Origin: Desulfobaccales bacterium
GTDB lineage: Bacteria; Desulfobacterota; Desulfobaccia; Desulfobaccales; 0-14-0-80-60-11
Reading direction: 5' to 3'
Length of the DNA: 64,000 nucleotides
Assembly (NCBI GenBank): GCA_050014275.1
Contig: JBEKDQ010000001.1
Location: 648-64,647 of the forward strand
Each line of letters starts with the position of its first letter. The first letter of the stretch is position 1. Below the pieces are notes generated by a model. It was not told the origin of the DNA and searched no databases. It saw only the letters and a program-made list of their open reading frames with translations. A program made the translations under genes and the position numbers. This document shows positions 5,976-48,599 of the stretch, piece by piece.

Positions 5976-7136
5976 ATGGATAATCCGGACGACTCCTTGG
6001 AAAAATTTGATATGCCCGAGGTCATCTTCGGCCTGGGCGCCTTGAGCAAGATCGGCCATTGTGCCAAGCGCCTGGGCGGGGAAAAGGTCTTCCTGGTCAC
6101 CGACCCGGGCATCATTGAAGCCGGTTGGGTGGATGAAAGTATCAAATACCTGGAAAAAGAAGACCTGAGATACGTGGTCTACGACAACGTGGTCACCAAC
6201 CCCAGGGATTTCCAGGTGGAGACTGGCGCCCAGCTCTATCTCCAGGAGCAGTGCGACGTCATCGTGGCGGTAGGCGGCGGTAGTGCAATCGACGCGGGCA
6301 AGGGAGTGGCCATCCTGGCTTCCAACTTCGGGAGCATCCATGATTACGAGGGCTGCAATAAAATCACTCACCCCATTCCGCCCATGGTGTGCGCCCCCAG
6401 CACCGCCGGGACCGGGGCCGACATCACCCAGTTTGCCGTGATCACCGACGTTGCCCGGCGGGTGAAGATGACTATCCTTAGCCGGGCCATCATGCCAGAT
6501 ATCTCCGTGATCGACCCGCGTCTCTTGCAGACCAAGCCCCAGGATCTCATCGCCTCCACCGGAGTGGACACCCTGACCCACGCCATAGAGGCTTATGTCT
6601 CGGCGCTCTCCTGGCACCTGACCGACCCGCACGCCATCCACGCCATTGAGCTGGTGATGCAGCATCTGCCCACGGCCGTGAAGTCCAGAAATATGGACGC
6701 CCTGGCCGGCATGTCCATTGCCTGCCTTGAGGCCGGCATCGCCTTTTCCAATGCGATTCTAGGCGCGGTGCATGCCCTGGCCCACCCCCTGGGGGGCTAT
6801 TACGATATGCACCATGGCGTCGCCAACACGGTGCTCCTGCCGGTGGTGACCCGCCGCAACCTGAAACACTCCCCGGACAAATACGCCCGCATTGCCCAGG
6901 CCATGGGGGTGACGGCCAACGGCCAGAGCACCCGGGAGATGGGGCTACAGATTATTGAAAAGATTGAACAATTACTTACAGAGATCGAACTCCCAACCAG
7001 ACTATCCCAACTGGGGGTGAAGCGGGAGGATATTCCCCTGATGGCTGACCTGGCACAGCAGGATGTCTGCCTGTTAACCAACCCCTGCTCATACTCCAAA
7101 GAAGAGATCGAAGCGATTTATCATGAGGCCTGGTAA
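5976..7136 (+). CDS. Iron-containing (type III) alcohol dehydrogenase
   Basis: 386 aa with GGGSAIDAGK, a PSTAGTGADIT-type loop and metal-ligand His motifs (THAIEAY, HALAHPLGG..HHG). Confidence 0.9.
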   Translation: MDNPDDSLEKFDMPEVIFGLGALSKIGHCAKRLGGEKVFLVTDPGIIEAGWVDESIKYLEKEDLRYVVYDNVVTNPRDFQVETGAQLYLQEQCDVIVAVGGGSAIDAGKGVAILASNFGSIHDYEGCNKITHPIPPMVCAPSTAGTGADITQFAVITDVARRVKMTILSRAIMPDISVIDPRLLQTKPQDLIASTGVDTLTHAIEAYVSALSWHLTDPHAIHAIELVMQHLPTAVKSRNMDALAGMSIACLEAGIAFSNAILGAVHALAHPLGGYYDMHHGVANTVLLPVVTRRNLKHSPDKYARIAQAMGVTANGQSTREMGLQIIEKIEQLLTEIELPTRLSQLGVKREDIPLMADLAQQDVCLLTNPCSYSKEEIEAIYHEAW

Positions 7137-7144
7137 AGGACGCC

Positions 7145-8344
7145 ATGGGACAAGACCCGAAACTGGCAGCTTATGATTTTAAGGGCCTAGGATATTCCAA
7201 GATCGGTCACTTCAAGGAAGTCCGCGCCAAAATCAAGGAACTGGAAGGTCTAAACCTGGAATTGGCCCGGCGACACCACAAGCTGGCCACCATCATCGAC
7301 AGCATGAGTGACGGCTTGACCATCTTGAACCGAGACCTGGATATAATCTTGGCCAACAAGGTCCAGAAGGCCATGTTCCCGGATATTTCCCTGGAAGGGA
7401 AAAAATGCTACCGCACCTTTTTTCGGAAAGACCATGCCTGCCGCAACTGTCCGGCTCTCAAGACCATGGAAAGGCAAGAAGTACTCTCGGGAGAATTCCT
7501 GATCAAGGAGGGCGAATTCGCCGGCCGCTTCTGTGAATGGACTACCTCCCCCTTGCGGGGCGCCTCCGGGCAGGTGGAGCAAGTGTTGCTGCTCATGAGG
7601 GATGTCACGGAGCGTAAAGAATACGAATTCAAGCTGATGCAGACCGATCGGATGGCGGCCATCGGCCTCTTGGCCGATGGCATCGCCCACGAAATCAATA
7701 ATCCCCTGACCTCTATTGCAGGTTTTTCCGAGGCGCTGCTCAAAAGGCTCGGAAATAATTCGCTGCCGGGAGAGAAGAAGCCGAAACTCCTCCTGGAGTA
7801 CTTGGATATTATTAATAAAGAGGCCCATCGCTGTAAGGAAATAGTCCGGCAGTTGCACGACTTTAACCGTAAGCCCACGCATGGACGGGAAGTGCTCGAT
7901 GTCGGCCAGATCATTAATGCCACGGTGTCCCTGATCCGGACCCATGCCAAACATAACAATACCAAGATCAAGGTGAAGAATAGCCTGGCCACCGGGTTCG
8001 ACCGGGTTGAAGGCAATGAGGCCCAGATGAAACACGCCTTCCTCAACCTGATCCATTTTCTGCTCGGCGTCATGCCGGACGGTGGCGAATTGACGATCAC
8101 GGCCAGGAATTCCGGGAACCTGATTGAGGTCATCCTGTCGGCCAGCGGAGGTCGACTCCCGGCTCACTGGCACGAGAATGCCATGCATTCCCCCTATAGC
8201 TGGGACCTGGCTGGCGGAGAGACGCCGGTGAATCTTTCCATCTGTTACAGCATCATTCGGCACCACAGCGGCACCCTGCGGCTGGATATCCGGGAGCAGG
8301 AAGAGCCCTCTCTGGTGGTACGGTTTCCCTCGTTTGTGCCATGA
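7145..8344 (+). CDS. PAS-domain sensor histidine kinase
   Basis: 399 aa, soluble. Has a PAS region carrying Cys residues (CYRTFFRKDHACRNCP), an H-box (IAHEINNPLTSI) and a C-terminal HATPase-like region. Confidence 0.85.
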   Translation: MGQDPKLAAYDFKGLGYSKIGHFKEVRAKIKELEGLNLELARRHHKLATIIDSMSDGLTILNRDLDIILANKVQKAMFPDISLEGKKCYRTFFRKDHACRNCPALKTMERQEVLSGEFLIKEGEFAGRFCEWTTSPLRGASGQVEQVLLLMRDVTERKEYEFKLMQTDRMAAIGLLADGIAHEINNPLTSIAGFSEALLKRLGNNSLPGEKKPKLLLEYLDIINKEAHRCKEIVRQLHDFNRKPTHGREVLDVGQIINATVSLIRTHAKHNNTKIKVKNSLATGFDRVEGNEAQMKHAFLNLIHFLLGVMPDGGELTITARNSGNLIEVILSASGGRLPAHWHENAMHSPYSWDLAGGETPVNLSICYSIIRHHSGTLRLDIREQEEPSLVVRFPSFVP

Positions 8345-8431
8345 AGACATAAAAAGTCGGGCCGTGAAGGCCGGGGGAAGGGCATTGACCGATAGACCGG
8401 AAAGATAATACTCCACGAAGGAGATAACACC

Positions 8432-9763
8432 ATGTCCCAGGGAAGGATTCTGGCCATTGATGATGAACAGAACATCAGGACCCTCATCGCCAATGAATTC
8501 TCCTTGGAAGGCTTCGGCGTCACCACCGCCAAAAGCGGCGAGGAGGGCCTGAAGTTTTGTGATAAAGAGAAGTTTGACGTCGTCCTCCTGGACATCCGGC
8601 TGCCCAAGATGAACGGCATCGAGGTGCTCCGGCGCCTAAAGGAGAAGACGCCGGATGCCAGGGTCATCATGATCACGGCCTACGGCGACATCAAAACCGC
8701 CGTGGAATCCATGAAACTGGGGGCCCAGGATTACGTCACCAAGCCTTTCAAACTCGGCGAACTCCTGGGTCTAGTAAAACAGGCCTTGGGCGGTGGCCAG
8801 AGCGGCGGCGATGCCAAAACCTCCGAGTCTGCCCTGGCGGCCGGCGGGGCCCCGGGCTTTATCCGCTGTCCCAACCGGGCGATGCAAGACCTCTATGACC
8901 TGGTGGCCAAGGTGGCCCCTACGGATAAGACCATCTTAATCCAGGGGGAAACCGGCGTAGGCAAGGATGTGGTGGCTCAACAGATTCACGCCCTGAGCCG
9001 GCGCAAGGACGGCCCTTTCATTATCGTGGATTGCGGCATCCTCAACCAAAACCTGGCGGAAAGTGAGCTTTATGGCCATACCAAAGGCGCCTTCTCCGGG
9101 GCCTGGGAAAAGAGGTCCGGCCTGGTGGAGCAGAGCCATGGCGGTACCCTGTTCCTGGACGAAATCGGCAACATCGAATTGGAATTGCAGAAAAAATTCC
9201 TGCGCTTCCTGGAGACCAAGAAGTTTCGCCGCCTGGGAGAAACCCGGGAGGTCGAAATCGACACCCGGATCATCCTGGCCACCCACCTGGACCTGCAGGA
9301 AGCGGTGGCCCGGGGGACTATGCGCAAGGACTTGTTTTACCGCATTGACGTGATTCTCATTCCTATTCCACCTCTAAGAAAACGGCCGGAAGACGTGCCT
9401 CCACTGGCCCGCCATTTCCTCAGTCTGGAGCAGAGTATCGTTGGCGCCAAGAAGATCTCAGCCGAAGCCATGCGGATCATGACCGAGTATGCCTGGCCGG
9501 GAAACGTTAGGGAACTCCGGAGCGTGATCAACAAGGCGGTGATTTTTGCCCGGACCGATACCATTACGCCCAACGATCTGCCCTCTGAGCTCAGGAGAAA
9601 TGTGCCGGTTTCCCCGCAGAAGACCCTGGAGGACTTGGAGAAGAATTATATCCTCACGGTCCTGGAGAGAACAGGAGGCAATCAGAGCGAGGCCGCCAAG
9701 ATCCTGGGGATTAACCGCAAGACCCTTTATAAAAAGATTCATAAGTTTAAGATACTTAATTGA
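8432..9763 (+). CDS. Sigma-54-dependent response regulator (NtrC family enhancer-binding protein)
   Basis: 443 aa. Receiver domain (DDEQNIR..., DVVLLDIRLPKMNG), AAA+ core (GETGVGKD, GAFSGA (GAFTGA-type motif), LFLDEIG) and a C-terminal Fis-type HTH. Confidence 0.9.
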   Translation: MSQGRILAIDDEQNIRTLIANEFSLEGFGVTTAKSGEEGLKFCDKEKFDVVLLDIRLPKMNGIEVLRRLKEKTPDARVIMITAYGDIKTAVESMKLGAQDYVTKPFKLGELLGLVKQALGGGQSGGDAKTSESALAAGGAPGFIRCPNRAMQDLYDLVAKVAPTDKTILIQGETGVGKDVVAQQIHALSRRKDGPFIIVDCGILNQNLAESELYGHTKGAFSGAWEKRSGLVEQSHGGTLFLDEIGNIELELQKKFLRFLETKKFRRLGETREVEIDTRIILATHLDLQEAVARGTMRKDLFYRIDVILIPIPPLRKRPEDVPPLARHFLSLEQSIVGAKKISAEAMRIMTEYAWPGNVRELRSVINKAVIFARTDTITPNDLPSELRRNVPVSPQKTLEDLEKNYILTVLERTGGNQSEAAKILGINRKTLYKKIHKFKILN

Positions 9764-10024
9764 TTTTCCGCTTGAGCTGCGGTCATTTGTCCCTATAGAC
9801 CCCAGAAGGTCTGGATTATCAACTTTCATATTAGATTCATGATGTTATCTTAACTGCCCGCAGGTCCATCTCATAATTCACACCCCAGCGACCCAGCTTT
9901 TTACCTTCCGGTCCCCCGGCTCTCGATTTCGCCTGATTCGGGGTCCTACCCTTCATCATAAATTACCCTGGTATTTTAGGGACATGTTGACTTAAGAGTT
10001 TGGTGAGAGGCCTTGGAGAAAGGT

Positions 10025-10040
10025 AGGCACGCGGTTTGCT
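10025..10040 (+). promoter_or_regulatory. Candidate sigma-54 promoter ~590 nt upstream of the mycofactocin-type cluster
   Basis: AGGCACGCGGTTTGCT has GG (10026-27) and GC (10038-39) 12 nt apart, a near-consensus GGCACG-N4-TTGC. The long distance to the first CDS lowers confidence. Confidence 0.4.
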
Positions 10041-10617
10041 TATATGTGCTTTGCCCGCCGATCTAGTCATTTGAGATTCGCCATGGAAGCATTAAGGTTC
10101 ACCCAGAGCCAGATCGGAGAAATGCCTCAGAAACGAAATCCCCAAATGAAAGGGGGCGGTCCAAGAACGTCATCCTGGGCACCTTGGCAGAAGATTCCCA
10201 TAGAAAGTAAGGGCTTGTTTTAGGACTAAAGCAAACCAGGCACCAAGGGGGCGAGCCTGGTCTCGCTTCCATTTGTGCATATGAGCCGTACCACTTTCTC
10301 CTTTCGGCCCTCCGGGAGGAGGGCAAAACAAATTATTTCCCCCCTAAACTCCTCCTAGGAAGAGGGCCCCCCCATCCCTCTCCAAGGAGAACCTAGGCGT
10401 CAGTAGGGGGGATAGGTATTCTTCCCAACATCGGGGTGGCCGATACGGGGCGCACCTTACCCTGCAAGCCTGGAGGAAAAGGCCCGGCTGGTTGTCCCGG
10501 AGCAGAGATTAGCGCAATACGGCGCCACAGATATGCGGGAACTCCTGCAGAAAGTTACTAAAGATTAACCTTCGCAACTCTAAGCGATAATTCCGTGAAT
10601 CAGAAAGGAGTGAGGGG

Positions 10618-11427
10618 ATGAAGCTGGAAGGCAAAGTAGCCATCATAACCGGCGGGGCACGCGGCAACGGCTTTGCTGCGGCTAAGCTGATGGCCCAGGA
10701 AGGCGCGGATATCGTCATTGCCGACATCTGCGAAGATATCGCCACGGTTCCCTATCCTCTGTCCACCCCAGAGGGCATGGCGAACTCGGTCAACGAGATC
10801 AAAAAGCTGGGGCGGAAGGCCATGGGCATCAAGTGCGACGTGCGCAAGGCAGCCGATGTCCAGGCCATGGTGCAGCAGGTGCTGGACAGCTTCGGCAAGA
10901 TCGACATCCTGGTGAACAACGCCGGCACGGCCACCCTGGAGGCGGTGGTGGACATGAGCGAGGAATCCTGGGACGACATGATCGACGTCCACCTGAAAGG
11001 CACCTTCCTGTGCAGCAAATACGTGGTGCCTCAGATGATCGACGCCCACAGCGGTAAGGTGGTCAACATCAGCTCGGTGGGCGGCACCCGGGGTTTCGGG
11101 ATGGGCAGCCATTACTGCGCCGCCAAGCACGGCATCATCGGCTTTACCAAATCCCTGGCCATGGAGACCGCCGACCACAACATCAACGTCAACGCGGTGT
11201 GCCCAGGCACGGTCTGGACCGACATGATGCAGGGCCTGGCTAACTATTTCGGCATGGAAACCGCCGACGCCAAGGAGAACTTCTTCTCGGGCCATCTCTT
11301 CAAGGACCGGGAGATCACTCCGGACGATATTGGCCAGGCCGTGCTCTGGTTGGTCACCGAGGACACCAAGTGCATCACCGGCGGGATCATCATGGTGGAC
11401 GCCGGCTGGACTTGCCGGGCACCGTAA
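10618..11427 (+). CDS. Mycofactocin-coupled SDR-family oxidoreductase
   Basis: 269 aa. Has TGGARGNG, and the characteristic insert after the second strand (IADICEDIATVPYPLSTPEGMANSVNEIKKLGRK) seen in the mycofactocin-associated SDR subfamily. YxxxK is present as YCAAK. It lies immediately upstream of mftA. Confidence 0.8.
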   Translation: MKLEGKVAIITGGARGNGFAAAKLMAQEGADIVIADICEDIATVPYPLSTPEGMANSVNEIKKLGRKAMGIKCDVRKAADVQAMVQQVLDSFGKIDILVNNAGTATLEAVVDMSEESWDDMIDVHLKGTFLCSKYVVPQMIDAHSGKVVNISSVGGTRGFGMGSHYCAAKHGIIGFTKSLAMETADHNINVNAVCPGTVWTDMMQGLANYFGMETADAKENFFSGHLFKDREITPDDIGQAVLWLVTEDTKCITGGIIMVDAGWTCRAP

Positions 11428-11512
11428 GCGCCGGTGCAACCCTGGCGGTAAGGATTGAGGCGGGCGCCCGCGCCCCCTTGAGCACTAATCTAAATAACTG
11501 GAGGAATGACAG

Positions 11513-11638
11513 ATGGACGATGTGACCAGACGCGAAGAACAACCCCTGGAAGCCCAAGCCGAGGAGCTGGTCCCCTGCATCCTGGAAGAAGTCTGCATCG
11601 AAGAGATGGCGGTGGACGGAATCTGTGGCATCTACTAA
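11513..11638 (+). CDS. mftA: Mycofactocin precursor peptide MftA (variant C-terminus ...VDGICGIY)
   Basis: Hand-translated 41-aa ORF that falls below the ORF-track cutoff: MDDVTRREEQPLEAQAEELVPCILEEVCIEEMAVDGICGIY then stop. An acidic leader plus a C-terminal xDGxCGxY matches the canonical MftA ending IDGMCGVY. GGAGGA RBS lies upstream. Confidence 0.8.
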   Translation: MDDVTRREEQPLEAQAEELVPCILEEVCIEEMAVDGICGIY

Positions 11639-11708
11639 AAGCCGGCCTGGTTTCCGGTCCGGATGTGGCCGGGAACCAGGCGAAATTCAAGGCAACGGGG
11701 GAAGCGCC

Positions 11709-11990
11709 ATGAGCCCGGGAAAGGTCTATTGTCTCAAGGAGGGGGTCCAGGTGCGCCCGGAGGTCTTTGGGCTGCTCTTTTACGATTACCGGGGTCCCAA
11801 ACTCTACTTCGTGCCTTCCCGTGACCTCATCAACATTTCTTTTTTTGCCGGACGGCAAACCGAGCAGGAACTGATTGAAACCATTGCCACCGCTCATCCC
11901 TGGTCCCGTCGCGATATTCAGGACCGGGTGCGGCAAATTCTGGAGATGCTCGAGACGAAGGGATTGGTCCATGGGCAATCGTTATCTTGA
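11709..11990 (+). CDS. mftB: Mycofactocin biosynthesis chaperone MftB (PqqD/RRE family)
   Basis: ~93 aa from the internal ATG (MSPGKVYCLKEGVQVRPEVFGLLFYDYRGPKLYFV...). Typical MftB N-terminal pattern and position between mftA and mftC. Confidence 0.8.
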   Translation: MSPGKVYCLKEGVQVRPEVFGLLFYDYRGPKLYFVPSRDLINISFFAGRQTEQELIETIATAHPWSRRDIQDRVRQILEMLETKGLVHGQSLS

Positions 11991-13038
11991 CCTGGGGTTA
12001 TCCGCCCCGGTAAACGTCACCTGGGAAGTGACTTACAACTGCAACCTCTCGTGCATCCACTGCCTGTCGGACTCGAGCCGGCAGGGGCACCTGGGGCTGA
12101 GCACCCAGGAGTGCCTGGGGGTGATCGATATCCTGGCGGACCAGAAGGTCTTCCAGTTGAGCATCGGCGGCGGCGAGCCCTTCACCCGTCCGGATTTTTT
12201 GGATATCGTGGACCATGCCCACCAAAAGGGTATCGTCACCTGCATCAGCACCAATGGCACCCTGATCACCGAAGAGATAGCCCGGCGGCTGGATCACCGA
12301 CTGGTCTATGTCCAGGTGAGCCTGGACGGCGCCACCACCGAGTCCAATGACGCCATCCGGGGCCGGGGCAGCTTCCGCAAGGCGGTGCGAGCCCTGGAAC
12401 TCTTAGGCCAGACGAACATCGGTCTGAGCCTCAACACCGTGCTCACCCGTCTCAGTTTCCCGGAGTTGGACCGCCTCTCCGACCTGGCGGCCAGCGTCGG
12501 GGCCCGCCTCAGGGTCTCGCGCTTCCGGCCATCGGGCCGGGGCAAGCGCTCCTGGGACGACCTGAATCTTTCCAAGGAGCAGATGGTCGGCTTCTCGGAG
12601 TGGCTGAACCGGCACCTGGAAGTCTCCACCGGCGACTCCTTCTTCTCGGTGTCCTCGGAAGACCGCCGCTCCCTGGGGCTTAACATGTGTGGGGCGTGTA
12701 AGCTCACCTGCTGTATCTCCCCACTGGGAGAGATTTATCCCTGCGCCTTCTTGCAGGAGCCGGAATTTCTGGCCGGTAAGCTGCTGGAGGATAATTTCGC
12801 TCACATCTGGGAGCACTCGCTGGTCTTTGGCTCTTTTCGCGAATTAGAGATCAAATCCTGCGAGCGCTGCCAGCGCTTTAATCTGTGCCACGGCGGCTGC
12901 CCGGCCGTGGCTTATCATACGCAACGCCGCTTGGGCCTGCCGGACCCCGAGTGCCTGGTCAATTGCATCACCGTTAATTCTTTGACACCCGGGAGGGCCG
13001 ATGACCAACGCGATACCCCGAGGGCGGTTCTCCCTTAG
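11971..13038 (+). CDS. mftC: Mycofactocin radical SAM/SPASM maturase MftC
   Basis: ~355 aa from MGNRYLDLG... Has the CNLSCIHC radical SAM motif, then GGGEPF, VSLDGATTESNDAIRGRGSF, RVSRFRPSGRG, TGDSFF, GLNMCGA and SPASM cysteines (CERCQRFNLCHGGC, PDPEC). Overlaps mftB by 20 nt. Confidence 0.9.
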   Translation: MGNRYLDLGLSAPVNVTWEVTYNCNLSCIHCLSDSSRQGHLGLSTQECLGVIDILADQKVFQLSIGGGEPFTRPDFLDIVDHAHQKGIVTCISTNGTLITEEIARRLDHRLVYVQVSLDGATTESNDAIRGRGSFRKAVRALELLGQTNIGLSLNTVLTRLSFPELDRLSDLAASVGARLRVSRFRPSGRGKRSWDDLNLSKEQMVGFSEWLNRHLEVSTGDSFFSVSSEDRRSLGLNMCGACKLTCCISPLGEIYPCAFLQEPEFLAGKLLEDNFAHIWEHSLVFGSFRELEIKSCERCQRFNLCHGGCPAVAYHTQRRLGLPDPECLVNCITVNSLTPGRADDQRDTPRAVLP

Positions 13039-14530
13039 ACCGGGCCTCAGGCTGATCCCAGGGGAGGCGGGAGGGGTCCTCCTCCAGCCCGCACCGCTAC
13101 GCCTCCTTCGTGTCAACTCCGCAGCATTTGCGCTCCTTCAGAGATGTCAGGCAGGCTTCTTTTTAGAGAATAACGCCAGCCAGCCCGCGGGCCAACCGGA
13201 GAGGTCCATGTTCGCCTTTCTCGATGCCCTCTGGCAATCCGGTTTGCTGGACTGGCAGCCGGCCCTGGATACCTGCGCCCCGGCGGTCAGTATCGTCCTG
13301 CCGGTATATAACCGGGCCGGGGAGATCGGCAGATGCCTCGAGGCGCTGCTGGCCCTCAATTACCCCGGAGCGCGGCGGGAGATCATCGTGGTAGACGATG
13401 GCTCCACAGACGGCACCCCGGACGTGGTGAGAAATTGTCCGGTCAGGCTCCTCGTTCAGCCCCAAAACCTCGGGCAATCCGCAGCCCGCAATGCCGGGGT
13501 GCGGGCCGCCGGGGGCGATATCATTGCCTTTATCGATAGCGACTGCATCGCCGACCGGGACTGGCTTCGGGAGCTGTTGCCCTATTTTCAGGATTCCCGG
13601 GTAGCCCTGGTGGGCGGCTACGTAGATTCCTTCTTCCGGGAGACCAGGCTGGACCGCTTTGAGGAGGTCCAGTCTCCTCTGAACATGGGCCAGGGGTTGG
13701 CCTTCGGCACCACTGCTGAGTCGGACTTTTACGTGCCCACCTGCAATGTCCTGATCCGGAAAGAAGCCTACCTGGAGGTGGGGGGGCTGGATGAGGGGCT
13801 GCGTCTGGGCGAAGATGTGGACCTGTGTTGGCGGCTCAAGGAAAAGGGCCATCGTCTTCTTTACGTGCCCCGGGGCAAGGTGAGACACAAGCATCGCAAC
13901 CGCCTCCGGGAAATCCTGGCCCGGCGTTTCGACTATGGCACCTCCGAGGCCTTTCTCTTCAGCCGGCATGAGCAGGTGAAAAAACGCTTCCCCTGGAAAC
14001 CCACGGCCCTGGGTGTCTTCTTCTTAGGTTGTCTGGCGCTGCTGACGGGGTTCTGGCTGCTTCTCCCCCTGGCGGCGTTGTTGACGGCGACCGAGGCCTG
14101 GCGCCGCCAGCGGCAGGTGCAGATGAAGGCCGGGATGGCCCTGGGCTACCTCGCGGTCCTGAGGGCGATTCTCAGGGATTATTTCGCCACAGGGTTTTAT
14201 CTCACTTACCACTTGCTCCGCTATTATTTACTGCCTATTTTAATAATAGCCCTAATTTTTCCGGCCGCGGCGCCGCTAGCGGCGGTGCTTATCCTCTTTC
14301 CGGCGACGGTAGAGTTCGCCCGAAAGAAGCCGCGGCTGTCCCTGCCGCTGTTTCTCTGCCTCTATCTGGCGGAGCAGGCCTGCTATCAGGCCGGGGTATT
14401 CTGGGGTTGTCTCATTTGGAAAAATTTTCGTCCATATCATCTGTTGTTCTTCCGGTCTCAGAGAAATTCTGGGGCAGAGAGAGGTACACCGAATCTTAAC
14501 TTTGAGGAGACCATATGCCGAAATTCTTAA
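13001..14530 (+). CDS. mftF: Mycofactocin-system glycosyltransferase MftF (GT2 with N-terminal extension and C-terminal TM helices)
   Basis: 509 aa. N-terminal RFSLRPGLRLIPGEAGGVLLQPAPLRLLRVNSAAF segment, a GT2 core (VSIVLPVYNR, VVDDGSTDGT, FIDSDC, GEDVDLCWR), and hydrophobic helices at the C-terminus. Confidence 0.75.
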   Translation: MTNAIPRGRFSLRPGLRLIPGEAGGVLLQPAPLRLLRVNSAAFALLQRCQAGFFLENNASQPAGQPERSMFAFLDALWQSGLLDWQPALDTCAPAVSIVLPVYNRAGEIGRCLEALLALNYPGARREIIVVDDGSTDGTPDVVRNCPVRLLVQPQNLGQSAARNAGVRAAGGDIIAFIDSDCIADRDWLRELLPYFQDSRVALVGGYVDSFFRETRLDRFEEVQSPLNMGQGLAFGTTAESDFYVPTCNVLIRKEAYLEVGGLDEGLRLGEDVDLCWRLKEKGHRLLYVPRGKVRHKHRNRLREILARRFDYGTSEAFLFSRHEQVKKRFPWKPTALGVFFLGCLALLTGFWLLLPLAALLTATEAWRRQRQVQMKAGMALGYLAVLRAILRDYFATGFYLTYHLLRYYLLPILIIALIFPAAAPLAAVLILFPATVEFARKKPRLSLPLFLCLYLAEQACYQAGVFWGCLIWKNFRPYHLLFFRSQRNSGAERGTPNLNFEETICRNS

Positions 14531-14787
14531 TTGAACGAGAGATTCCCAAGGCCGGTCAGCTTTCCCCCGCGGACCTGCAGGCCATCTCCCAGAAATCCTG
14601 CCAGGTTCTTCGGGAACTCGGTCCGCAAATCCAGTGGCTGCAGAGCTACGTGACCCCAGACAAGATTTACTGCGTATATCTGGCGCCCAACGAGGACATA
14701 ATCAGGGAACATGCCAAGCGGGGCGGCTTTCCCGCCAACCGTATTTCTGAAATCAAAAAGGTGATTGATCCTACGACAGCCGAATAG
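14515..14787 (+). CDS. DUF4242-family small protein (family reported to include a Ni-binding ferredoxin-fold protein)
   Basis: 90 aa, MPKFLIEREIPKAGQLSPADL...YCVYLAPNEDIIREHAKRGGFPANRISEIK, which matches the DUF4242 pattern as I remember it. Overlaps the mftF end by 16 nt. Confidence 0.55.
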   Translation: MPKFLIEREIPKAGQLSPADLQAISQKSCQVLRELGPQIQWLQSYVTPDKIYCVYLAPNEDIIREHAKRGGFPANRISEIKKVIDPTTAE

Positions 14788-14813
14788 GACAATCCCGAAA
14801 CAAGCCGGCCCTC

Positions 14814-15647
14814 ATGACGAAAGATTTGACCAACAAATATCATCGTCTGCGTACAATTCTCCAGGACCTGGGGAGCGTGGCAGTGGCCTACTCCGGCGGG
14901 GTGGACAGCACCCTGCTCCTCAAGGTGGCCCAGGAGGTCCTGGGGGAGCGGATACTGGCCATTACCGCCGACTCCGAGACCACCCCCCAGCAGGAGCGGA
15001 AAGATGCGGCCCTCCTGGCCCGAGAACTGGGGGTGGAGCACCTGGTGGTGGCCGGCCGGGAACTGGAGCTGCAGGAGTTTCTCCGGAACCCCACCGACAA
15101 GTGTTATATCTGCAAAAAGGCTCGTTTCAGCGAGCTGGTGAAAATGGCCCGGGAGCGCGGCCTCAATGCGGTGGTGGACGGCGGCAACTTGGACGACCAG
15201 GCAGACTTCCGTCCCGGCATGCGGGCCGTTGAGGAACTGGGGATCAGGAGCCCTCTGGCGGAAGCCGGCCTTACCAAGGCGGAGATCCGCCTCCTCTCCA
15301 AGAGGCTGAAGCTCCCCACCTGGAAAAAGCCGGCCTACGCCTGCCTGGCCTCCCGTATCCCGTACCATCACGAAATCACGGTGGAGAAGCTGCGGCAGAT
15401 CGATGCCGCCGAAGAGCTAATCCGGAAAAGGGGCCTGGCGACCCAGGTGCGGGTCCGGCATTATGGCGACACGGCCCGCATCGAGGTAGAACCCGTAAGC
15501 ATCCACAGGCTGGCCGCCAAGATGGTGCGCTCGGACCTAATCAAAGAGCTTAAGACCCTGGGCTTCAAGTTCGTCACCCTGGACCTGGAGGGGTACCGTA
15601 CCGGGAGTCTGAACCCGGCTGAGGTTAAAACCAAAACAGAAAGTTAA
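14814..15647 (+). CDS. larE: ATP-dependent sacrificial sulfur transferase LarE
   Basis: 277 aa. PP-loop motif AYSGGVDST, a conserved Cys region (DKCYICKK), and overall LarE-like length and order next to larB and larC. Confidence 0.85.
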   Translation: MTKDLTNKYHRLRTILQDLGSVAVAYSGGVDSTLLLKVAQEVLGERILAITADSETTPQQERKDAALLARELGVEHLVVAGRELELQEFLRNPTDKCYICKKARFSELVKMARERGLNAVVDGGNLDDQADFRPGMRAVEELGIRSPLAEAGLTKAEIRLLSKRLKLPTWKKPAYACLASRIPYHHEITVEKLRQIDAAEELIRKRGLATQVRVRHYGDTARIEVEPVSIHRLAAKMVRSDLIKELKTLGFKFVTLDLEGYRTGSLNPAEVKTKTES

Positions 15648-15730
15648 TGGTCCCCTTAGAAAATCCGCTGGCCGCCCCATGGGGCGCCATCAACCCTACG
15701 GCCAAGGGCCTGTTTAAAGGAAGGTAAAGC

Positions 15731-16567
15731 ATGGAAAATGAATTCTTAAGAGACCTGCTGAAGCAGGTCGCCAGCGGCCAGATGAATCTGGACGCCGCCA
15801 TGCACGCATTGCGCAAGCTCCCCTTTGAGGACCTGGGCTACGCCCGGATAGACTTCCATCGTTGCCTGCGGAACGGGGTGCCGGAGGTCATTTATTGTGC
15901 CGGGAAGACCCTGTCGCAGATCCAGGGCATTGCCCAGAAGCTCGCCCATCACCATGTTAACGTCCTGGCTACCAGGGCCAGCCAGGAGGTGTTTGAGGGC
16001 GTCCGGGAAGTGGTCCCCGACTGCGAGTACCACGAAGCGGCCCGCATCATCGTGCTAAAGCCCCGGCCGTTGGAAGGATCGGGGCTCATCGCCGTGGTGA
16101 GCGCCGGCACCTCGGATATTCCCGTGGCCGAAGAGGCCGCCATCACCGCCGAAGTCCTGGGCAATAAAGTTACGCGCCTCTATGACGTGGGGGTGGCGGG
16201 AATCCACCGGCTGCTGAACCACTGTGACGACCTATTCCGGGCCAACGTGGCGGTGGTGGTAGCCGGCATGGAAGGCGCTCTGGCCAGCGTGGTGGGTGGC
16301 CTGGTCTCCTGCCCGGTAATCGGGTTGCCCACCAGCGTGGGTTACGGCGCCAGCTTCGGGGGCATCGCCGCCCTGCTCAGCATGCTGAACAGCTGCGCCT
16401 CGGGGGTCTCCGTGGTCAACATCGATAATGGCTTTGGGGCCGGCTTCCAAGCCAACCTCATCAACAAGATCGCGGCCAAGGCCGCCTCGGACACGGACAT
16501 TGCGAGGCCTGAGATGCAGGAAAAGCCCGCCGACCTACACCTGAAAAGGGCCTCCTGCTGTTCTTGA
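15731..16567 (+). CDS. larB: Nickel-pincer cofactor biosynthesis protein LarB (NaAD carboxylase/hydrolase, PurE-like)
   Basis: 278 aa. N-terminal LarB-specific segment (…LDAAMHALRKLPFEDLGYARIDFHRCLRNGVPEVIYCAGKT) followed by a PurE-like fold (VVSAGTSDIPVAEEA). Confidence 0.85.
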   Translation: MENEFLRDLLKQVASGQMNLDAAMHALRKLPFEDLGYARIDFHRCLRNGVPEVIYCAGKTLSQIQGIAQKLAHHHVNVLATRASQEVFEGVREVVPDCEYHEAARIIVLKPRPLEGSGLIAVVSAGTSDIPVAEEAAITAEVLGNKVTRLYDVGVAGIHRLLNHCDDLFRANVAVVVAGMEGALASVVGGLVSCPVIGLPTSVGYGASFGGIAALLSMLNSCASGVSVVNIDNGFGAGFQANLINKIAAKAASDTDIARPEMQEKPADLHLKRASCCS

Positions 16568-16602
16568 CGTTTTGGATATGGATTGGATATGGAGATGACT
16601 CA

Positions 16603-17925
16603 ATGAAAATCGCTTATTTCGATTGCTTCTCCGGGGCCAGCGGCGACATGATTCTGGGCGCCCTGGTGGACGCCGGCCTAAGTCTGGAGCATCTCACCGG
16701 GGAATTGGCCAAGTTGAACCTCTCCCATTATCATATTGCCGCCAAGAAGGTGGTAAAACAAGGGCTGGGCGGAACCCAGATGCTCATCGATCTAGAAAGG
16801 GACCGGCACTTCGAGGTCGGGCACCACCATGAGGAAGGGTTTCACAACCATCATCACAATCATCATCATGGGCGCCATCAAGATCATCATCACGACCACC
16901 ACTCGCACCGCGGCCACGAATGCCAGCGCCCGCCTCGCCATGAGCACCGGAATTTCCATGACATCAAAAATCTCATTGAGGCCAGCCCCCTCGACGAGGC
17001 GGTGAAGCACCAGAGTCTCCAGATCTTTACCCGTCTGGCCGAAGCTGAGGCGCAGGTGCACCGCACCAGTATCGAACAGATCCACTTCCACGAAGTGGGG
17101 GCGTTGGATTCCATCATCGACGTGGTGGGGGCGGCCATCGGCTTCCAGGCCCTGGGGATTGAGAAGATTTACTGTTCCCCCCTGGAGGTGGGCAGCGGCA
17201 CGGTGGTGTGCGCCCACGGCACCTTGCCGGTGCCGGCCCCGGCCACTCTGGAACTCATCAAAGGCAAGCCCGTCTATTCCAGCGGGGTGCAGGGAGAGCT
17301 GCTGACGCCCACCGGGGCCGCCATTCTCACCACCCTGGCCGCGGCCTTCGGCGCCATGCCGGCCATGACCGTGGAGGCCAGCGGTTACGGCGCCGGCACC
17401 CTGGATACGCCCGGTCCCAATCTCCTGCGGGTCTCCATCGGCGAAGCCGCCGAGACGGCGCAGGGCTTCCAGGTGGAGCGGGCGGCGGTCATTGAAACCA
17501 ATATTGACGACATGAATCCCCAGCTCTATGATTATCTTATCCAGAAGATGCTGGATATGGGCGCCCTGGATGTCTTCCTGGCGCCCATCCAGATGAAGAA
17601 GAATCGCCCCGGCACCCTGGTCTCGGTCATCTGCCAGGTGGAGGCGGTGGAAAAATTTGCCGAGTTTTTGCTCCAGGAGACCACTACCATCGGACTCAGG
17701 TGGCGGGTGGACCACCGCCTCAAGGCCGACAGGTCGATGCGGACGGTGGAGACCAGGTATGGGCCGGTGCGCTTTAAGGTGGCGCACCTGGGCGATCAGA
17801 CCGTCAATATTTCCCCGGAGTACGAGGACTGCAAACGCCTCGCTCTGGAAAAGAGCCTGGCCCTTAGAGACGTCATGGAAGAAGCCGGTTCGATGGCTGT
17901 GAAACTGAAACATGGCAATGGCTGA
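16603..17925 (+). CDS. larC: Nickel insertion protein LarC (DUF111) with internal His-rich tract
   Basis: Begins MKIAYFDCFSGASGDMILGALVDAGL, the LarC signature. The His-rich region HHHEEGFHNHHHNHHHGRHQDHHHDHHSHRGHE is encoded at ~16,820-16,920. Length ~440 aa. Confidence 0.85.
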   Translation: MKIAYFDCFSGASGDMILGALVDAGLSLEHLTGELAKLNLSHYHIAAKKVVKQGLGGTQMLIDLERDRHFEVGHHHEEGFHNHHHNHHHGRHQDHHHDHHSHRGHECQRPPRHEHRNFHDIKNLIEASPLDEAVKHQSLQIFTRLAEAEAQVHRTSIEQIHFHEVGALDSIIDVVGAAIGFQALGIEKIYCSPLEVGSGTVVCAHGTLPVPAPATLELIKGKPVYSSGVQGELLTPTGAAILTTLAAAFGAMPAMTVEASGYGAGTLDTPGPNLLRVSIGEAAETAQGFQVERAAVIETNIDDMNPQLYDYLIQKMLDMGALDVFLAPIQMKKNRPGTLVSVICQVEAVEKFAEFLLQETTTIGLRWRVDHRLKADRSMRTVETRYGPVRFKVAHLGDQTVNISPEYEDCKRLALEKSLALRDVMEEAGSMAVKLKHGNG

Positions 17926-18020
17926 GGGGAAGGATTTCCACCTTAGAACGTAATAAAGCTCAACTAATTTTCGAGCGGTGGGCGCTTCCACCGAAAATTC
18001 CACCAGTGAAGGAGCAGGCT

Positions 18021-19757
18021 ATGGAAAAGATTCTCAGAATTGACATGGGCGCAGAGGGCGGCCCCAAGGTCTCCGAGGTTCCGGTGGGGGAATACGCCGG
18101 TCTGGGCGGCCGGGCCATGACTTCCAGCATCGTGGGCAAAGAGGTGCCCCCCCTCTGCCATCCCCTGGGTGGCGAGAACAAACTGGTGATCGCCCCGGGG
18201 CTATTGAGCGGCACGGCCGCCGTTTCTTCCGGCCGCATCTCGGTGGGCTGCAAGAGCCCTTTGACCGGAACCATCAAGGAGTCCAACGCCGGGGGGCAAG
18301 CGGCGCAGGTCCTGGCTCGTTTGGGCTACGCCGGCATTGTCCTGGAGGGCAAGCCAAAAACGGACGACCTCTACAAGGTGTTCATCAACAAAGATGGAGT
18401 CACGATCACCGTGGACAACAGCTTAAAGCTGCTGCCCAATTATGACCTTATTGACCGGATGAAAAAGGAGCATGGAGAAAAGATCGCCTGTATCTCCATC
18501 GGCCCTTGCGGCGAGATGAAGATGGCGGCATCTTCAGTGGCCTTCACCGACATGGAGCTCAGGCCGTCCCGCCATGCAGGCCGTGGAGGGGTCGGAGCCG
18601 TTATGGGCGCCAAGCAAGTTAAAGTCATTGTGCTTGATGGAACGGGCACGAAGATGCGAACCCCCAAGAATCCGGAAAAATTCAACGATGCCAATAAGCG
18701 GTTTACGGAAGGGCTCAAGGGCCATCCGGTCACCGGGCAGGCGCTGCCCGCCTACGGCACGAATGTATTGACTAACATCCTCAATGAAGCAGGAGGGTAT
18801 CCTACTTACAACTTCGCGGAGGGGCGCTTTCAAGGGGCTCATCAGATCAGCGGTGAGACGCAGACAGAAATAATGGAATCCAGGGGCGGGTTGACCTCCC
18901 ATAGCTGCCACACTGGCTGCGCCATCCGCTGCTCGGGCACCTATCACGATAAAGACGGCCATTACGTGACTAAACAACCCGAATACGAAACTGTCTGGGC
19001 GCACGGGGGCAATTGTGGCATCTGTGATATGGATGCCATTGCCAATCTTGATTTCCTGGATGACAACTTCGGGCTGGACACCATTGAAACGGGGGTTACG
19101 GTGGGCGTGGCCATGGAAGCCGGCCTGCTCAAATTCGGAGATTCCGAAGGGGCCATCAATCTGGTGAAAGAAATAGGCAAAGGCACCTACCTGGGCCGCA
19201 TCCTGGGGGCCGGCGCCGAAGTCACCGGCAAAATCTTTGGCGTGGAGCGGGTTCCGGTGGTCAAAGGCCAGGCCATGCCCGCCTATGATCCTCGAGCAGT
19301 GCAGGGCATCGGCGTCACCTACGCCACCAGCACCATGGGGGCCGACCATACGGCCGGCTACGCCGTGGCCACCAATATCCTCAAAGTGGGGGGCGACGTC
19401 GATCCCCTTTCGCCCAAAGGCCAGGTGGAACTGTCCCGGAATCTGCAAATCGCCACGGCGGCGGTTGATGCCACCGGCATGTGCCTGTTCATCGCCTTCG
19501 CCGTCCTGGACCAGCCGGAGACCTTTCAGGCCTTGATCGATTTGATCAATGCCTTCTATGGCGGCAACCTGGATGCCAATGGCGTGATGGAATTGGGCAA
19601 AACCATCCTGAAGATCGAAAAGGAGTTCAATACCCAGGCCGGCTTCACCAAGGCCCACGACCGGCTGCCGCGGTTCTTCAAGAACGTGCCCCTGCCCCCG
19701 CATAACGTCGTCTTCCAGGTGACGGATGCGGAGCTGGATGAGGTGTACAACTTCTAA
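18021..19757 (+). CDS. Tungsten-containing aldehyde:ferredoxin oxidoreductase family protein (AOR copy 1)
   Basis: ~578 aa from the ATG preceded by AAGGAG (the ORF track starts at GTG 18006). AOR N-terminal domain (ILRIDMG..., GLGGRAMTS), and pterin/FeS region motifs (…GADHTAGY, CLF…). Confidence 0.9.
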   Translation: MEKILRIDMGAEGGPKVSEVPVGEYAGLGGRAMTSSIVGKEVPPLCHPLGGENKLVIAPGLLSGTAAVSSGRISVGCKSPLTGTIKESNAGGQAAQVLARLGYAGIVLEGKPKTDDLYKVFINKDGVTITVDNSLKLLPNYDLIDRMKKEHGEKIACISIGPCGEMKMAASSVAFTDMELRPSRHAGRGGVGAVMGAKQVKVIVLDGTGTKMRTPKNPEKFNDANKRFTEGLKGHPVTGQALPAYGTNVLTNILNEAGGYPTYNFAEGRFQGAHQISGETQTEIMESRGGLTSHSCHTGCAIRCSGTYHDKDGHYVTKQPEYETVWAHGGNCGICDMDAIANLDFLDDNFGLDTIETGVTVGVAMEAGLLKFGDSEGAINLVKEIGKGTYLGRILGAGAEVTGKIFGVERVPVVKGQAMPAYDPRAVQGIGVTYATSTMGADHTAGYAVATNILKVGGDVDPLSPKGQVELSRNLQIATAAVDATGMCLFIAFAVLDQPETFQALIDLINAFYGGNLDANGVMELGKTILKIEKEFNTQAGFTKAHDRLPRFFKNVPLPPHNVVFQVTDAELDEVYNF

Positions 19758-43244: not shown

Positions 43245-44198
43245 TGTCTTGGGAAGGGGGCCAGGTCTTCCACAGGCGAGACGCCTGTGCCACTGGCCCT
43301 GTCCCCCTCCCTAACAGGTTGGCCGAAAGTCTAATCGATGAAGGGGCCATCGACCTGGTGGGCCGCATCATGCACTTCGCCAAAGCACCAAAGGCCAAGA
43401 AGGGGCGCCTGGGCTTGCGGAGGAAGACCCCAATTGGCCATGGACTGAGATAGATTATCAATTTGAAATAATTCAAAATATCCTGATATGGGGTTCGTTG
43501 GGGCCAAAACGGGAAGCGCCAGCGCCGGCTGGAGGCAAGGCCCACCTTCGGAAGAAGCATCCTTCGGTGCCGATTAATTATTTATAATTATAATCAATAC
43601 TTAACCAATACCACCTCTGATTTAACAATCTATCGGCGGTGGGAGGTGTTGGCGCAGATTTTGCTTAATAGAAATCAGCCATTCTATCTTTCGACGGAGG
43701 AAGGGGGTAGGTAACCACAAGCGCGGTGATCCTCTGTATTTGGGGATTTTCTTTGATTCATCTGTGTCAAAGAGCCATCGATCCCAAAATGGAGGAAAGA
43801 CATGATCCCCCGGCATGCTCCTGGTCTAGTCGCTCATTTTGTGGGTCGTGGTGGGTCTGTGGATTCCGGCCTTCTCCCTTATGCTGACCGGTGCCCTGCT
43901 GCTTTGCCATTGAGCTTGAGGTTTTTCTGTCTTGGTTTAGAAAGGTTGATTAACCCCCAGCTTCCGGATCGGAAACGGGACCAAGGGCCCAGGGGTCTCC
44001 CGCCTGCTACCACGTCTTACTGCAGGCGCTTTCACAGGTGAACAGGAAACCCCCAGGTTCTACTTCACCAGAGGAAAGGGGGCTGATACGGCTGCACTAT
44101 GGCTGCACAACCCATTAGTCAAGGGGCAGTGTCGCAAGGATTGGATTGACTCGTGAAGGCAAATTTCTTCACCCAAAGCCATGAGGAGGCATAAAGCT

Positions 44199-45707
44199 AT
44201 GGTAGAGTACGTTTATGAACCGACAAAATGGAATGAGATGAAGGCACCGATTCAAGGCGGGAGAGACACCTATCAAGCCAAGAGTTGGAATCCCACCTCC
44301 AAAAAATGGGGGCCCTGGACGAAAGACGGGCCGGCCAAGGTCTGGTTTTCCGAGGCGAATGCCACCAACTGGACCGAGTCCATGATCTGCAAAACCAAAG
44401 ACCTCTTCTATGAAGCCAAACTTAATGAGTGCTTCCAGAAAGGCGATGAGGTGGCGATCAAGATCCATTACGGCGAATGGAACCGGACGGCCATTCTCCG
44501 GCCGGAGTACATTGCCGCCATCATCGAGGAAGTGAAATCCTGCGGCGGCAATCCCTATGTAGTGAATGACACCACCCTGTCCTACCACACCTATAACAGC
44601 ATGGCGATTTCCCAATACCAGATGGAAGGCGCCATCCGCCATGGTTACACCGATGCCACCTTCGGCTGCCCGGTGCTTATCGCCGACGGCTACTCCGGCG
44701 AGGATGATTACCGGGTAGAGCTTCCCGAGGGCCTCATCCTCAAAGAGACCTTCATCGGCCGGGCCATTGCCGAAGCCGATGCCATGATCGTCATCGGACA
44801 TGCCCGGGGCCATTCGATCACGATGTATGGCGGCGTTTTGAAGCAATTGGGCATCGGCTGCCAGTCGAAGCGCGGCAAGTATATCACCCACCTGGCCCAC
44901 TGGGGCGACCCCCACGACGCCATCGGCTGGCCGAAGTTCACGGATAAGTGCCCGGGCAAGGCCTGCAAGTTCCACCAGATGTGCGACGATTCCTGTCCCC
45001 GCAATGCCCACCACGTCTTCGAGCACGGAAAGGTGTGGTATCCGGAGCGCTGCCGGCTCTGCTACTCCTGCCAGGTTACCTGCATCTTCTCCGGCATGAC
45101 CGGCATCACCTTCGAGGAAAACTACTTCCCCAATGCCATGATCGCCCATGCCGACGCTGCCCTGGGGGCCCTCAAATGCTTCGATCGGGGCAAAGTAGGC
45201 TTCATCAACTGCGCCATCGACGTGGTCCCGGAATGTGACTGTTTCCCCTGGGCCGGTCTTGCCATCTGCCCGGATGTGGGCATCCTGGCCAGCCGGGACA
45301 TGGTTGCCCTCGAAAATGCCACCCTGGACCTCATCGACAATGCTCCCATAACCCCCGGTTCGGTGGCCCAGGAAAAGGGATTGAAGCCCGGAGACGACAA
45401 ATTTAAGGTTGTCAACGGTTTCAGCCCCCGCATCACGATGGCGGCGGCGGAAAAGATCGGCTGTGGCACCGGGAAATACGAGATGGTCAATTATGAACCC
45501 ATCTTGAACCCGGAAAATGCCATGAAGTGGCAGATCCGGAAAGGCGGCATCGCCAACCACCGGCCCACCACCGTCCGCCTGCGGGAGGTGTTCAGAAAGC
45601 ATGACCTGGCCACGGAAGTCATGCCTTTCCGGCGGACGGCCTACAACAAGGAGTGGGTCTGGGACAACTGGAAGGAGTATGACCCTCTCAAGGGTGCAAA
45701 GGCTTAA
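44199..45707 (+). CDS. DUF362-domain Fe-S protein (COG2768-like) with inserted ferredoxin-type cysteine motifs
   Basis: ~502 aa from the ATG 9 nt downstream of GAGGAGG. DUF362-like core (…VAIKIHYGEW…, …VIGHARGH…), plus CPGKACKFHQMCDDSCP and CRLCYSCQVTC motifs. Confidence 0.65.
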   Translation: MVEYVYEPTKWNEMKAPIQGGRDTYQAKSWNPTSKKWGPWTKDGPAKVWFSEANATNWTESMICKTKDLFYEAKLNECFQKGDEVAIKIHYGEWNRTAILRPEYIAAIIEEVKSCGGNPYVVNDTTLSYHTYNSMAISQYQMEGAIRHGYTDATFGCPVLIADGYSGEDDYRVELPEGLILKETFIGRAIAEADAMIVIGHARGHSITMYGGVLKQLGIGCQSKRGKYITHLAHWGDPHDAIGWPKFTDKCPGKACKFHQMCDDSCPRNAHHVFEHGKVWYPERCRLCYSCQVTCIFSGMTGITFEENYFPNAMIAHADAALGALKCFDRGKVGFINCAIDVVPECDCFPWAGLAICPDVGILASRDMVALENATLDLIDNAPITPGSVAQEKGLKPGDDKFKVVNGFSPRITMAAAEKIGCGTGKYEMVNYEPILNPENAMKWQIRKGGIANHRPTTVRLREVFRKHDLATEVMPFRRTAYNKEWVWDNWKEYDPLKGAKA

Positions 45708-46770: not shown

Positions 46771-46792
46771 TCCTACACCCGACCTGGAGGAC

Positions 46793-48264: not shown

Positions 48265-48269
48265 GGAGT

Positions 48270-48585: not shown

Positions 48586-48599
48586 CTGAGGAGTGTGGT

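Follow-up and report, generated by a model that had tools for sequence, protein, structure and literature searches.

A variant-type mycofactocin precursor ending in Ile-Tyr, and its nickel-pincer gene neighbourhood, in a Desulfobaccales bacterium

Mycofactocin is a redox cofactor made from the end of a short ribosomal peptide. MftB binds the precursor, MftA, and MftC oxidatively decarboxylates its C-terminal Tyr and cyclises it onto the neighbouring Val, which gives a 4,4-dimethyl lactam that is released as AHDP (234.137 Da); MftE frees this core, MftD oxidatively deaminates AHDP to the redox-active keto-amide PMFT (233.105 Da), and MftF adds beta-1,4-glucose units to the phenol (PMC7491314). 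In Mycobacterium smegmatis, a delta-mftE mutant still makes mycofactocin by means of another peptidase, and a delta-mftD mutant loses all mycofactocins (PMC7491314). The last four residues of MftA, C-G-V-Y, were described as invariant from Actinobacteria to Archaea (Haft 2011, PMC3023750). Here, we analyse a 64,000-nucleotide stretch of a Desulfobaccales genome (contig JBEKDQ010000001.1; hereafter the window), in which a 41-codon open reading frame (ORF), at positions 11513-11638 of the plus strand, encodes an MftA-type peptide with the end Cys-Gly-Ile-Tyr (CGIY). This ORF is a genuine mycofactocin-type precursor gene inside a genuine mycofactocin-type cluster. We put at roughly 0.75 the probability of the reading that we favour as a whole, namely that a variant-type precursor, encoded in one block with an SDR oxidoreductase, MftB, MftC, and MftF, gives rise to an Ile-derived lactam carrier.

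The gene, mftA, runs from an ATG to a TAA stop, and its translation, MDDVTRREEQPLEAQAEELVPCILEEVCIEEMAVDGICGIY, is exactly the one given in a preliminary description of this DNA. That description had also called attention to a good ribosome-binding site, which lies 8 nt upstream, to the MftA-type character of the peptide, and to Ile as the penultimate residue in place of Val, and on all these points it was right; in the canonical family, this Val is invariant (PMC3023750). The peptide scores 48.7 bits against the NCBIfam hidden Markov model (HMM) NF040489, 'variant-type mycofactocin precursor' (cut-off 30, E 6.7e-13), with residues 20-41 aligned to profile positions 2-23, and the genes of MftB, MftC, and MftF adjoin it. 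An 88%-identical homolog carries the NCBI name 'variant-type mycofactocin precursor [Desulfobaccales bacterium]'. Scoring with the TIGRFAM model of MftA, which had been proposed as a check, has a divided outcome: the peptide passes the variant model but fails the canonical TIGR03969, a 23-residue C-terminal model, with 12.2 bits (E 0.13, cut-off 25). Since C-G-V-Y was described as invariant (PMC3023750), the CGIY end is a true departure from the family as originally defined. The idea that the 41 codons are a chance open frame has the small size of the ORF in its favour and nothing else; the E-value of the match, the ribosome-binding site, a syntenic location with the SDR gene on one side and mftB on the other, and the conservation of the protein despite synonymous turnover in about 70 genomes make it next to impossible, and we reject it. 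We also reject the two extra leader cysteines (C22, C28), once offered as a distinguishing trait, as a functional feature: among 75 distinct DNA versions of mftA, Cys occupies the C22 position in 12 and the C28 position in 2.

As a sequence family, the CGIY precursor is already known. It is modelled by NCBI and is widespread in one phylum, and for this reason the claim that the Ile-Tyr peptide is a newly recognised variant does not hold. The distribution of scores is consistent with NF040489 having been built around the CGIY type: CGIY peptides reach 49-54 bits and mostly fail TIGR03969, whereas long-form precursors ending in Gly-Val-Tyr (GVY) pass both models, with 38-47 bits for NF040489. 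The variant model also accepts some GVY-ending peptides, at lower scores, and NCBI has given the variant-type name to a GVY-ending peptide from Chloroflexota. The end IDGMCGVY, which the preliminary description took as canonical, is one canonical end and not the only one, as most non-actinobacterial relatives end in [IV]DGICGVY. That description had further allowed that GIY ends might prove to be common and already characterised. Common they are, in sulfate-reducing Desulfobacterota, but we found no paper on GIY ends, and no published chemistry or function for the NF040489 family.

How fixed is the Ile-Tyr end? Three surveys that did not presuppose the last two residues bear on this question. 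First, all 19 homologs recovered by a whole-peptide search end in ...EEMAVDGICGIY. Second, loci retrieved through MftC alone and with enough upstream DNA (3 from protein look-ups and 7 from a metagenome scan) encode CGIY without exception (10 of 10); in one of these peptides, Ile is replaced by Val at position -5, so that variation near the terminus is tolerated. Third, a profile search of 1.84 billion cluster representatives returned 320 matches at E <= 1e-3, and among the best 150 of these, 41 end in GIY, 108 end in GVY, and 1 is spurious. In addition, a scan of one genome per GTDB species for the pattern D-G-[IM]-C-G-I-Y-stop gave 84 matches, of which 71 (about 70 genomes) have SDR/MftB/MftC genes alongside; the other 13 are chance matches, for which our own estimate of the expectation is about 20-27. 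The labels of the 71 are Desulfobacterales, Desulfomonilaceae, Syntrophobacteraceae, Syntrophaceae, Desulfobaccales, Desulfatiglandales, Desulfarculaceae, and generic delta/Thermodesulfobacteriota, with a few named only 'Proteobacteria/Pseudomonadota bacterium' or 'bacterium', and none of these neighbour-supported matches bears a phylum label other than Desulfobacterota.

The codons behind this end tell how it has been kept. Across the 75 DNA versions of mftA, the last seven residues are unchanged and every synonymous codon is used: Gly(-6) is encoded by GGT (23), GGG (18), GGA (17), and GGC (17), and Ile(-2) by ATT (40), ATC (30), and ATA (5), with no Val codon. Fixed residues together with free synonymous codons imply purifying selection on the protein. 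The GVY peptides among the best 150 profile matches mostly end in ...EELA[IV]DGICGVY, and some are identical to the CGIY type in the other 11 of the last 12 residues (EELAVDGICGVY in 6 representatives, EELAVDGICGIY in 26). A single A-to-G transition separates Ile from Val, yet Val was never seen inside the Desulfobacterota clade, while near-identical cores with Val exist elsewhere; we therefore take the penultimate Ile to be maintained by selection in this lineage and not to reflect noise. The exchange could instead be neutral, the product being an ordinary mycofactocin with one more methylene that behaves identically, and the 'variant' being sequence drift in one lineage. Such neutrality would fit the chemistry, given that MftC would take its hydrogen from a tertiary C-beta whether the residue is Val or Ile, and that the keto-amide is remote from the side chain (PMC7491314), and it would fit the existence of GVY peptides that have otherwise identical cores and pass both HMMs. 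It fits poorly with the lack of any Val in 75 DNA versions, 19 peptide homologs, and 10 MftC-anchored loci when synonymous sites are saturated, and with the company that each type keeps: the CGIY type is always accompanied by a distinct SDR subfamily (NF040490) and a neighbourhood of its own, the GVY forms by OYE-type flavoproteins and ETF/Fix proteins. We consider neutrality unlikely.

The genes around mftA form a compact block, in which the SDR gene, mftA, mftB, mftC, and mftF are adjacent and on the same strand, and the SDR, MftB, MftC, and MftF all score above curated cut-offs (Table 1). The SDR gene lies directly upstream of mftA in 58 of 59 related loci (this and the counts given below for the nickel-pincer, Mrp, and DUF362 genes include only loci with enough flanking DNA). 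Among solved structures, its product is closest to two mycobacterial 'carveol dehydrogenase' proteins, 3oec and 3t7c; these are mycofactocin-associated nicotinoproteins, and all three proteins share a DIC...YP..TPE insertion after the second beta-strand. For MftC, we took the ATG at 11971 as the start, giving 355 aa, the same length as called in the related locus L001; the radical SAM motif CxxxCxxC reads CNLSCIHC at residue 24, the SPASM motif Cx2Cx5Cx3C reads CERCQRFNLCHGGC at residue 297, and PqqE is among the nearest solved relatives. The hairpin just after the mftA stop has a comparable counterpart (z < -2) in 32 of 74 related mftA-mftB spacers, which makes it recurrent and not universal, and it may set the ratio of precursor to enzymes. 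A gene for MftF was found in 24 of 38 related loci. In one Desulfobacterales subclade, to which the cultured Desulfonema limicola (CP061799) belongs, the CGIY cluster lacks mftF, and larE follows mftC immediately (loci L005, L022, L025, L026, L032, L043, L053, L060, L062, L073, L075, and L089), and any product there would thus be made without a clustered glycosylation step.

The chemistry that we propose follows the canonical pathway, with Ile in the place of Val. MftB would bind the conserved leader segment P-x-[IV]-L-E-E-[IV]-x-[IV]-E-E-[LM]-A-V-D-G, after which MftC would oxidatively decarboxylate Tyr41 and bond the former Tyr carbon to the tertiary C-beta of Ile40. The hydrogen abstracted from Ile would, as with Val, come from a tertiary C-beta, and we therefore expect a 4-ethyl-4-methyl lactam core that has gained a stereocentre, which is a sound inference from established MftC chemistry. 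The product at the peptide end would be 3-amino-4-ethyl-4-methyl-5-(4-hydroxybenzyl)pyrrolidin-2-one, that is AHDP plus CH2 (+14.016 Da), and the predicted masses of the Ile-derived species are 248.152 Da for the amine (C14H20N2O2), 247.121 Da for the keto form, and 249.136 Da for the reduced form. An unlinked peptidase would free this core, as in the MftE bypass of M. smegmatis, something other than a clustered MftD would turn the amine into a redox-active alpha-keto amide, and MftF, where encoded, would glycosylate the phenol. Reducing equivalents would then pass to the product from the NAD(H) that the dedicated SDR binds tightly. The setting is probably an alcohol/aldehyde oxidation module, which we propose because an ErcA-like sensor, a sigma-54 regulator, and an aldehyde:ferredoxin oxidoreductase are encoded nearby. 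The extra methylene would leave the redox centre untouched and most likely tunes recognition by a co-evolved MftC and partner enzymes such as the SDR.

A number of observations weigh against this proposal. The scanned ORFs of the window include neither the creatininase-family peptidase MftE (TIGR03964 / PF02633) nor the FMN-dependent oxidative deaminase MftD (TIGR03966 / PF01070), and in eight related loci neither is encoded by any gene called up to about 10 kb from the cluster. As deletion of mftD abolishes all mycofactocins in M. smegmatis (PMC7491314), another enzyme must perform the MftD step, or else the end product differs. The gene for MftF is missing from 14 of 38 loci, that of Desulfonema limicola included. 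A literature search ('variant-type' mycofactocin, CGIY, MftA Val29/Ile substitution) returned no relevant paper, and there is no solved MftC structure by which to judge how Ile would fit; a second search, for mycofactocin together with Desulfobacterota, gave no paper mentioning mycofactocin. Judging from the M. smegmatis mutants, MftE should be dispensable in principle and MftD should not, and either the MftD gene lies elsewhere in these genomes or its step is done by another enzyme.

The same missing genes lend some credit to a different fate of the peptide. Once modified by MftC, it might not be a free keto-amide carrier at all but stay an amine or remain peptide-bound, and serve the neighbouring nickel-pincer/DUF362 machinery in another way, for instance as substrate, scaffold, or ligand. 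Besides the lack of MftD and MftE near any locus examined, this alternative can draw on gene order: 37 of 38 related loci (L004-L091) have larE or larB directly after mftC or mftF, and genes for Mrp and DUF362 are upstream in 22 of 23. The order across the related loci is DUF362a - DUF362b - Mrp-type ATPase - 2-3 small ORFs - SDR - mftA - mftB - mftC - [mftF] - larE - larB - larC - [aldehyde:ferredoxin oxidoreductase] - FIST protein - PAS kinase; in the window, the DUF362 block is shifted about 30 kb away, to 44181-48962, and is otherwise intact. On the other side, a dedicated mycofactocin-coupled SDR in 58 of 59 loci and MftF in 24 of 38 speak for the usual carrier role, MftD and MftE could lie elsewhere in the genome, and the DUF362-Lar module exists without mft genes inside, so the peptide is not needed in cis. 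This last point comes from Pelotomaculum thermopropionicum SI (L111, AP009389), a Firmicute in which mycofactocin is encoded at another place in the genome (Haft 2011, PMC3023750). Its positions 3597-17726 hold the order Fe-dependent alcohol dehydrogenase (Fe-ADH) - kinase - sigma-54 regulator - DUF362a - DUF362b - Mrp - epimerase-like - two small ORFs - larB - larC - larE. A role of the modified peptide outside electron carriage seems to us unlikely, and the Ile-derived carrier is the reading that we keep.

Table 1. Features of the window discussed in the text (positions within the 64,000-nucleotide stretch).
Feature	Position	Strand	Basis
Fe-dependent alcohol-dehydrogenase-like gene (ErcA-like)	5976..7136	+	NF041833 ErcA 478.6 bits (below cut-off 550); Pfam Fe-ADH
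PAS histidine kinase	7145..8344	+	Pfam PAS_4, HisKA
Sigma-54-dependent response regulator	8432..9763	+	Pfam Response_reg, Sigma54_activat, HTH_8
Sigma-54-promoter-like site AGGCACGCGGTTTGC	10025..10039	+	One mismatch to TGGCAC-N5-TTGC, GG and GC kept
Mycofactocin-coupled SDR oxidoreductase, subfamily 3	10618..11427	+	NF040490 510.4 bits, cut-off 385
Ribosome-binding site GGAGG	11500..11504	+	Read from sequence; 8 nt before mftA ATG
mftA, variant-type mycofactocin precursor ending ...AVDGICGIY	11513..11638	+	Translation, HMM, homologs, codon survey
Stable hairpin just 3' of mftA stop	11645..11681	+	Minimum free energy -34 kcal/mol, z -2.9
mftB, peptide chaperone (RRE/PqqD-like)	11709..11990	+	TIGR03967 53.2 bits, cut-off 33; VRPEVFG motif
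mftC, radical SAM/SPASM maturase	11971..13038	+	TIGR03962 365 bits, cut-off 265
mftF, family-2 glycosyltransferase	13001..14530	+	TIGR03965 392.3 bits, cut-off 280
SCO4226-like nickel-responsive small protein, between mftF and larE	14515..14787	+	PF14026 101 bits
larE, nickel-pincer cofactor sulfur transferase	14814..15647	+	TIGR00268 322.8 bits
larB	15731..16567	+	NF033503 299.7 bits
larC, His-rich insert	16564..17925	+	TIGR00299 230.8 bits; NF052512 153.4 bits
Aldehyde:ferredoxin-oxidoreductase-family protein	18006..19757	+	NF007354 partial match; orthologs Pfam AFOR_N, AFOR_C
DUF362a, LarA-like fold, inserted Cys-rich (Fe-S-like) region	44181..45707	+	PF04015; AlphaFold (AF2) model; H211-x9-K221-x15-H237 motif
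DUF362b, paralog without His/Lys/His motif	45796..46770	+	PF04015; motif scan
Mrp/NBP35-type Fe-S carrier ATPase, His-rich tail	46751..47785	+	NF041136 286.8 bits (below cut-off); Pfam ParA
Two small conserved ORFs accompanying DUF362 block	47923-48264, 48567-48962	+	54% and 67% identity to Desulfonema limicola ORFs

Because the DUF362/Lar module stands on its own in Pelotomaculum, the lar genes probably serve DUF362a. The Desulfobacterota version of this module has acquired the SDR-mft genes at its centre. We regard the gene context, with no MftD or MftE nearby, the fusion with lar genes, and a LarA-like DUF362 protein, as a more valuable lead than the Ile-Tyr end itself; a literature search found no paper linking mycofactocin with the nickel-pincer cofactor. 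LarC has a long His-rich tract (HHHEEGFHNHHHNHHHGRHQDHHHDHHSH), as does the Mrp-type ATPase at its C-terminus (HDHHNHHHHQNHHQGDECCGH), which suggests that both proteins handle nickel. The Desulfonema limicola counterparts of the two small ORFs adjoin its SDR gene. The product of the small ORF that comes first after the Mrp gene has 108-119 aa and matches no family; in the window and in the related loci L004 (4333-4692), L005 (7938-8264), L006 (7464-7823), and L007 (7595-7954), its C-terminus invariably reads ...K-[TN]-[FM]-x-V-R-M-T-stop. NCBIfam has no models for DUF362a, DUF362b, the small ORFs, or a 212-aa protein.

Several lines of evidence make DUF362a a candidate for a new nickel-pincer enzyme. 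First, DUF362 and the N-domain of LarA belong to the same Pfam clan, CL0471 (PMC11770544). Second, an AlphaFold (AF2) model built from 28 homologs (pLDDT 85.8) retrieves only LarA-family structures among its 18 PDB matches at E <= 1e-3 (probability 1.00), with TM-scores of only 0.24-0.36. Third, H211, K221, and H237 are invariant across the 28 bacterial and archaeal homologs, and their spacing is identical to that of the catalytic H174, the K184 that tethers the nickel-pincer nucleotide (NPN), and the nickel ligand H200 of LarA (PMC7583248). In a weak hhalign profile alignment (E 0.048), H211 and K221 coincide with the His and Lys of LarA. DUF362a has no Pfam match to Lar_N (PF09861) or LarA_C, only to PF04015 (DUF362), and sequence-only PDB searches with DUF362a and DUF362b gave no matches.

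These elements could be joined in a single pathway. The MftD and MftG steps are otherwise linked to oxygen or respiration (PMC11778925). In Desulfobacterota, an Ile-Tyr mycofactocin and the nickel-pincer nucleotide might work together, with DUF362a as a LarA-fold Fe-S NPN enzyme that is enabled by LarE, LarB, and LarC and supplies an oxygen-independent amine oxidation of the MftD type or a re-oxidation of the MftG type; in the latter option, reduced mycofactocin would be re-oxidised and its electrons passed to the Fe-S clusters of DUF362a. This is a tentative idea, which we would not expect to prevail, and to put DUF362a in place of MftD or MftG is speculation. If true, DUF362 would be the first non-isomerase branch of the LarA fold, and the product would be the first peptide-derived cofactor to depend on a nickel-pincer enzyme.

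Further features of the window concern regulation and genome structure. The Fe-ADH, PAS kinase, and sigma-54 regulator genes likely form a sensing and regulatory trio, which is also found upstream in L001-L003, in L007, and in Pelotomaculum. Between the genes of the sigma-54 activator and of the SDR lie about 850 bp (9764-10617) with no convincing ORF, and the same gap is present in L001-L003. The sigma-54-like site within it is a weak call based on position, since the motif is not enriched across the window. Rfam gave only a sub-threshold, irrelevant match for a structured RNA in this 850-bp leader or around mftA, and scans for sigma-70 promoters and terminators found sites no more often than in shuffles. 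Inverted repeats of about 260 nt (48327-48585 and 55251-55511; 84-94% complementary), each arm of which holds a sigma-54-like GG-N10-GC site, bracket a 6.7-kb segment with a Zn-dependent alcohol dehydrogenase (Zn-ADH), a deacetylase-like gene, a CBS protein, and a malic-enzyme fusion. Two 85-nt direct repeats (55839-55923 and 56075-56159; 92% identical, 236 nt apart) lie in a gene-poor stretch before a Na+/H+ exchanger gene.

The CGIY peptide is one more member of a family that annotation pipelines have already named. Its interest is that of a natural experiment on a part of mycofactocin thought to be invariant: the conserved Ile predicts a homologated core with a chiral C4 (ethyl/methyl), which could be used to probe the specificity of MftC and the recognition of the cofactor by its enzymes. 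The neighbourhood raises two further questions, namely how strict anaerobes complete mycofactocin and regenerate it in the absence of MftD, MftE, and MftG, and which proteins use the nickel-pincer cofactor where larB, larC, and larE occur without a classical LarA nearby. DUF362a is a concrete candidate answer to both.

Set beside the canonical mycofactocin system (MftA-F of Mycobacterium tuberculosis and M. smegmatis), the locus shares 1) a short precursor whose C-terminal region of 23 residues is conserved and ends in C-G-x-Y; 2) the MftB chaperone, the radical SAM/SPASM enzyme MftC, and the glycosyltransferase MftF; and 3) a dedicated SDR nicotinoprotein. It differs in the penultimate Ile, which replaces an invariant Val, in the failure to reach the canonical HMM cut-off, in the lack of clustered MftD, MftE, MftR, and MftG, in the junction with larE/B/C, and in its host lineage of strict anaerobes. 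From the NF040489 precursors and the NF040490 'SDR_subfam_3' oxidoreductases it shows no difference at the sequence level, and by score its peptide and SDR are members of these families. The long-form GVY precursors of other anaerobes (...EELA[IV]DGICGVY) have a near-identical core with a penultimate Val and other neighbours: Zn- or Fe-ADH, OYE/Pyr_redox flavoproteins, and ETF/FixC/FixX, where the CGIY type has SDR subfamily 3, DUF362, and Lar. Two of their clusters, L108 (8871-18628) and L110 (8749-20135), with precursors ending in ...EELAVDGICGVY, read ADH - mftA - radical SAM - OYE/Pyr_redox - ETF alpha/beta - FixC/FixX - glycosyltransferase, and neither has MftD or MftE, or adjoining Lar or DUF362 genes. 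L108 is the one case with a true MftC, 50% identical to that of the window, and has a classical larA about 9 kb downstream; L110 is a weak comparator, its radical SAM protein being only 25-28% identical to MftC, and the GVY representatives P0192 and P0149 lie on contigs of about 1 kb that are uninformative for context. To LarA and other NPN enzymes, DUF362a is alike in clan, fold matches, His-x9-Lys-x15-His spacing, and the larB/C/E genes nearby in the cluster, and it differs by the missing Lar_N match, the inserted Cys-rich Fe-S-like domain, and the low TM-scores. Finally, the biosynthesis of PQQ (PqqA/PqqD/PqqE) has in common with this locus the conversion of a ribosomal peptide into a redox cofactor by an RRE chaperone and a radical SAM/SPASM enzyme, and differs from it in the residues that are cross-linked, in the later enzymes, and in the final cofactor.

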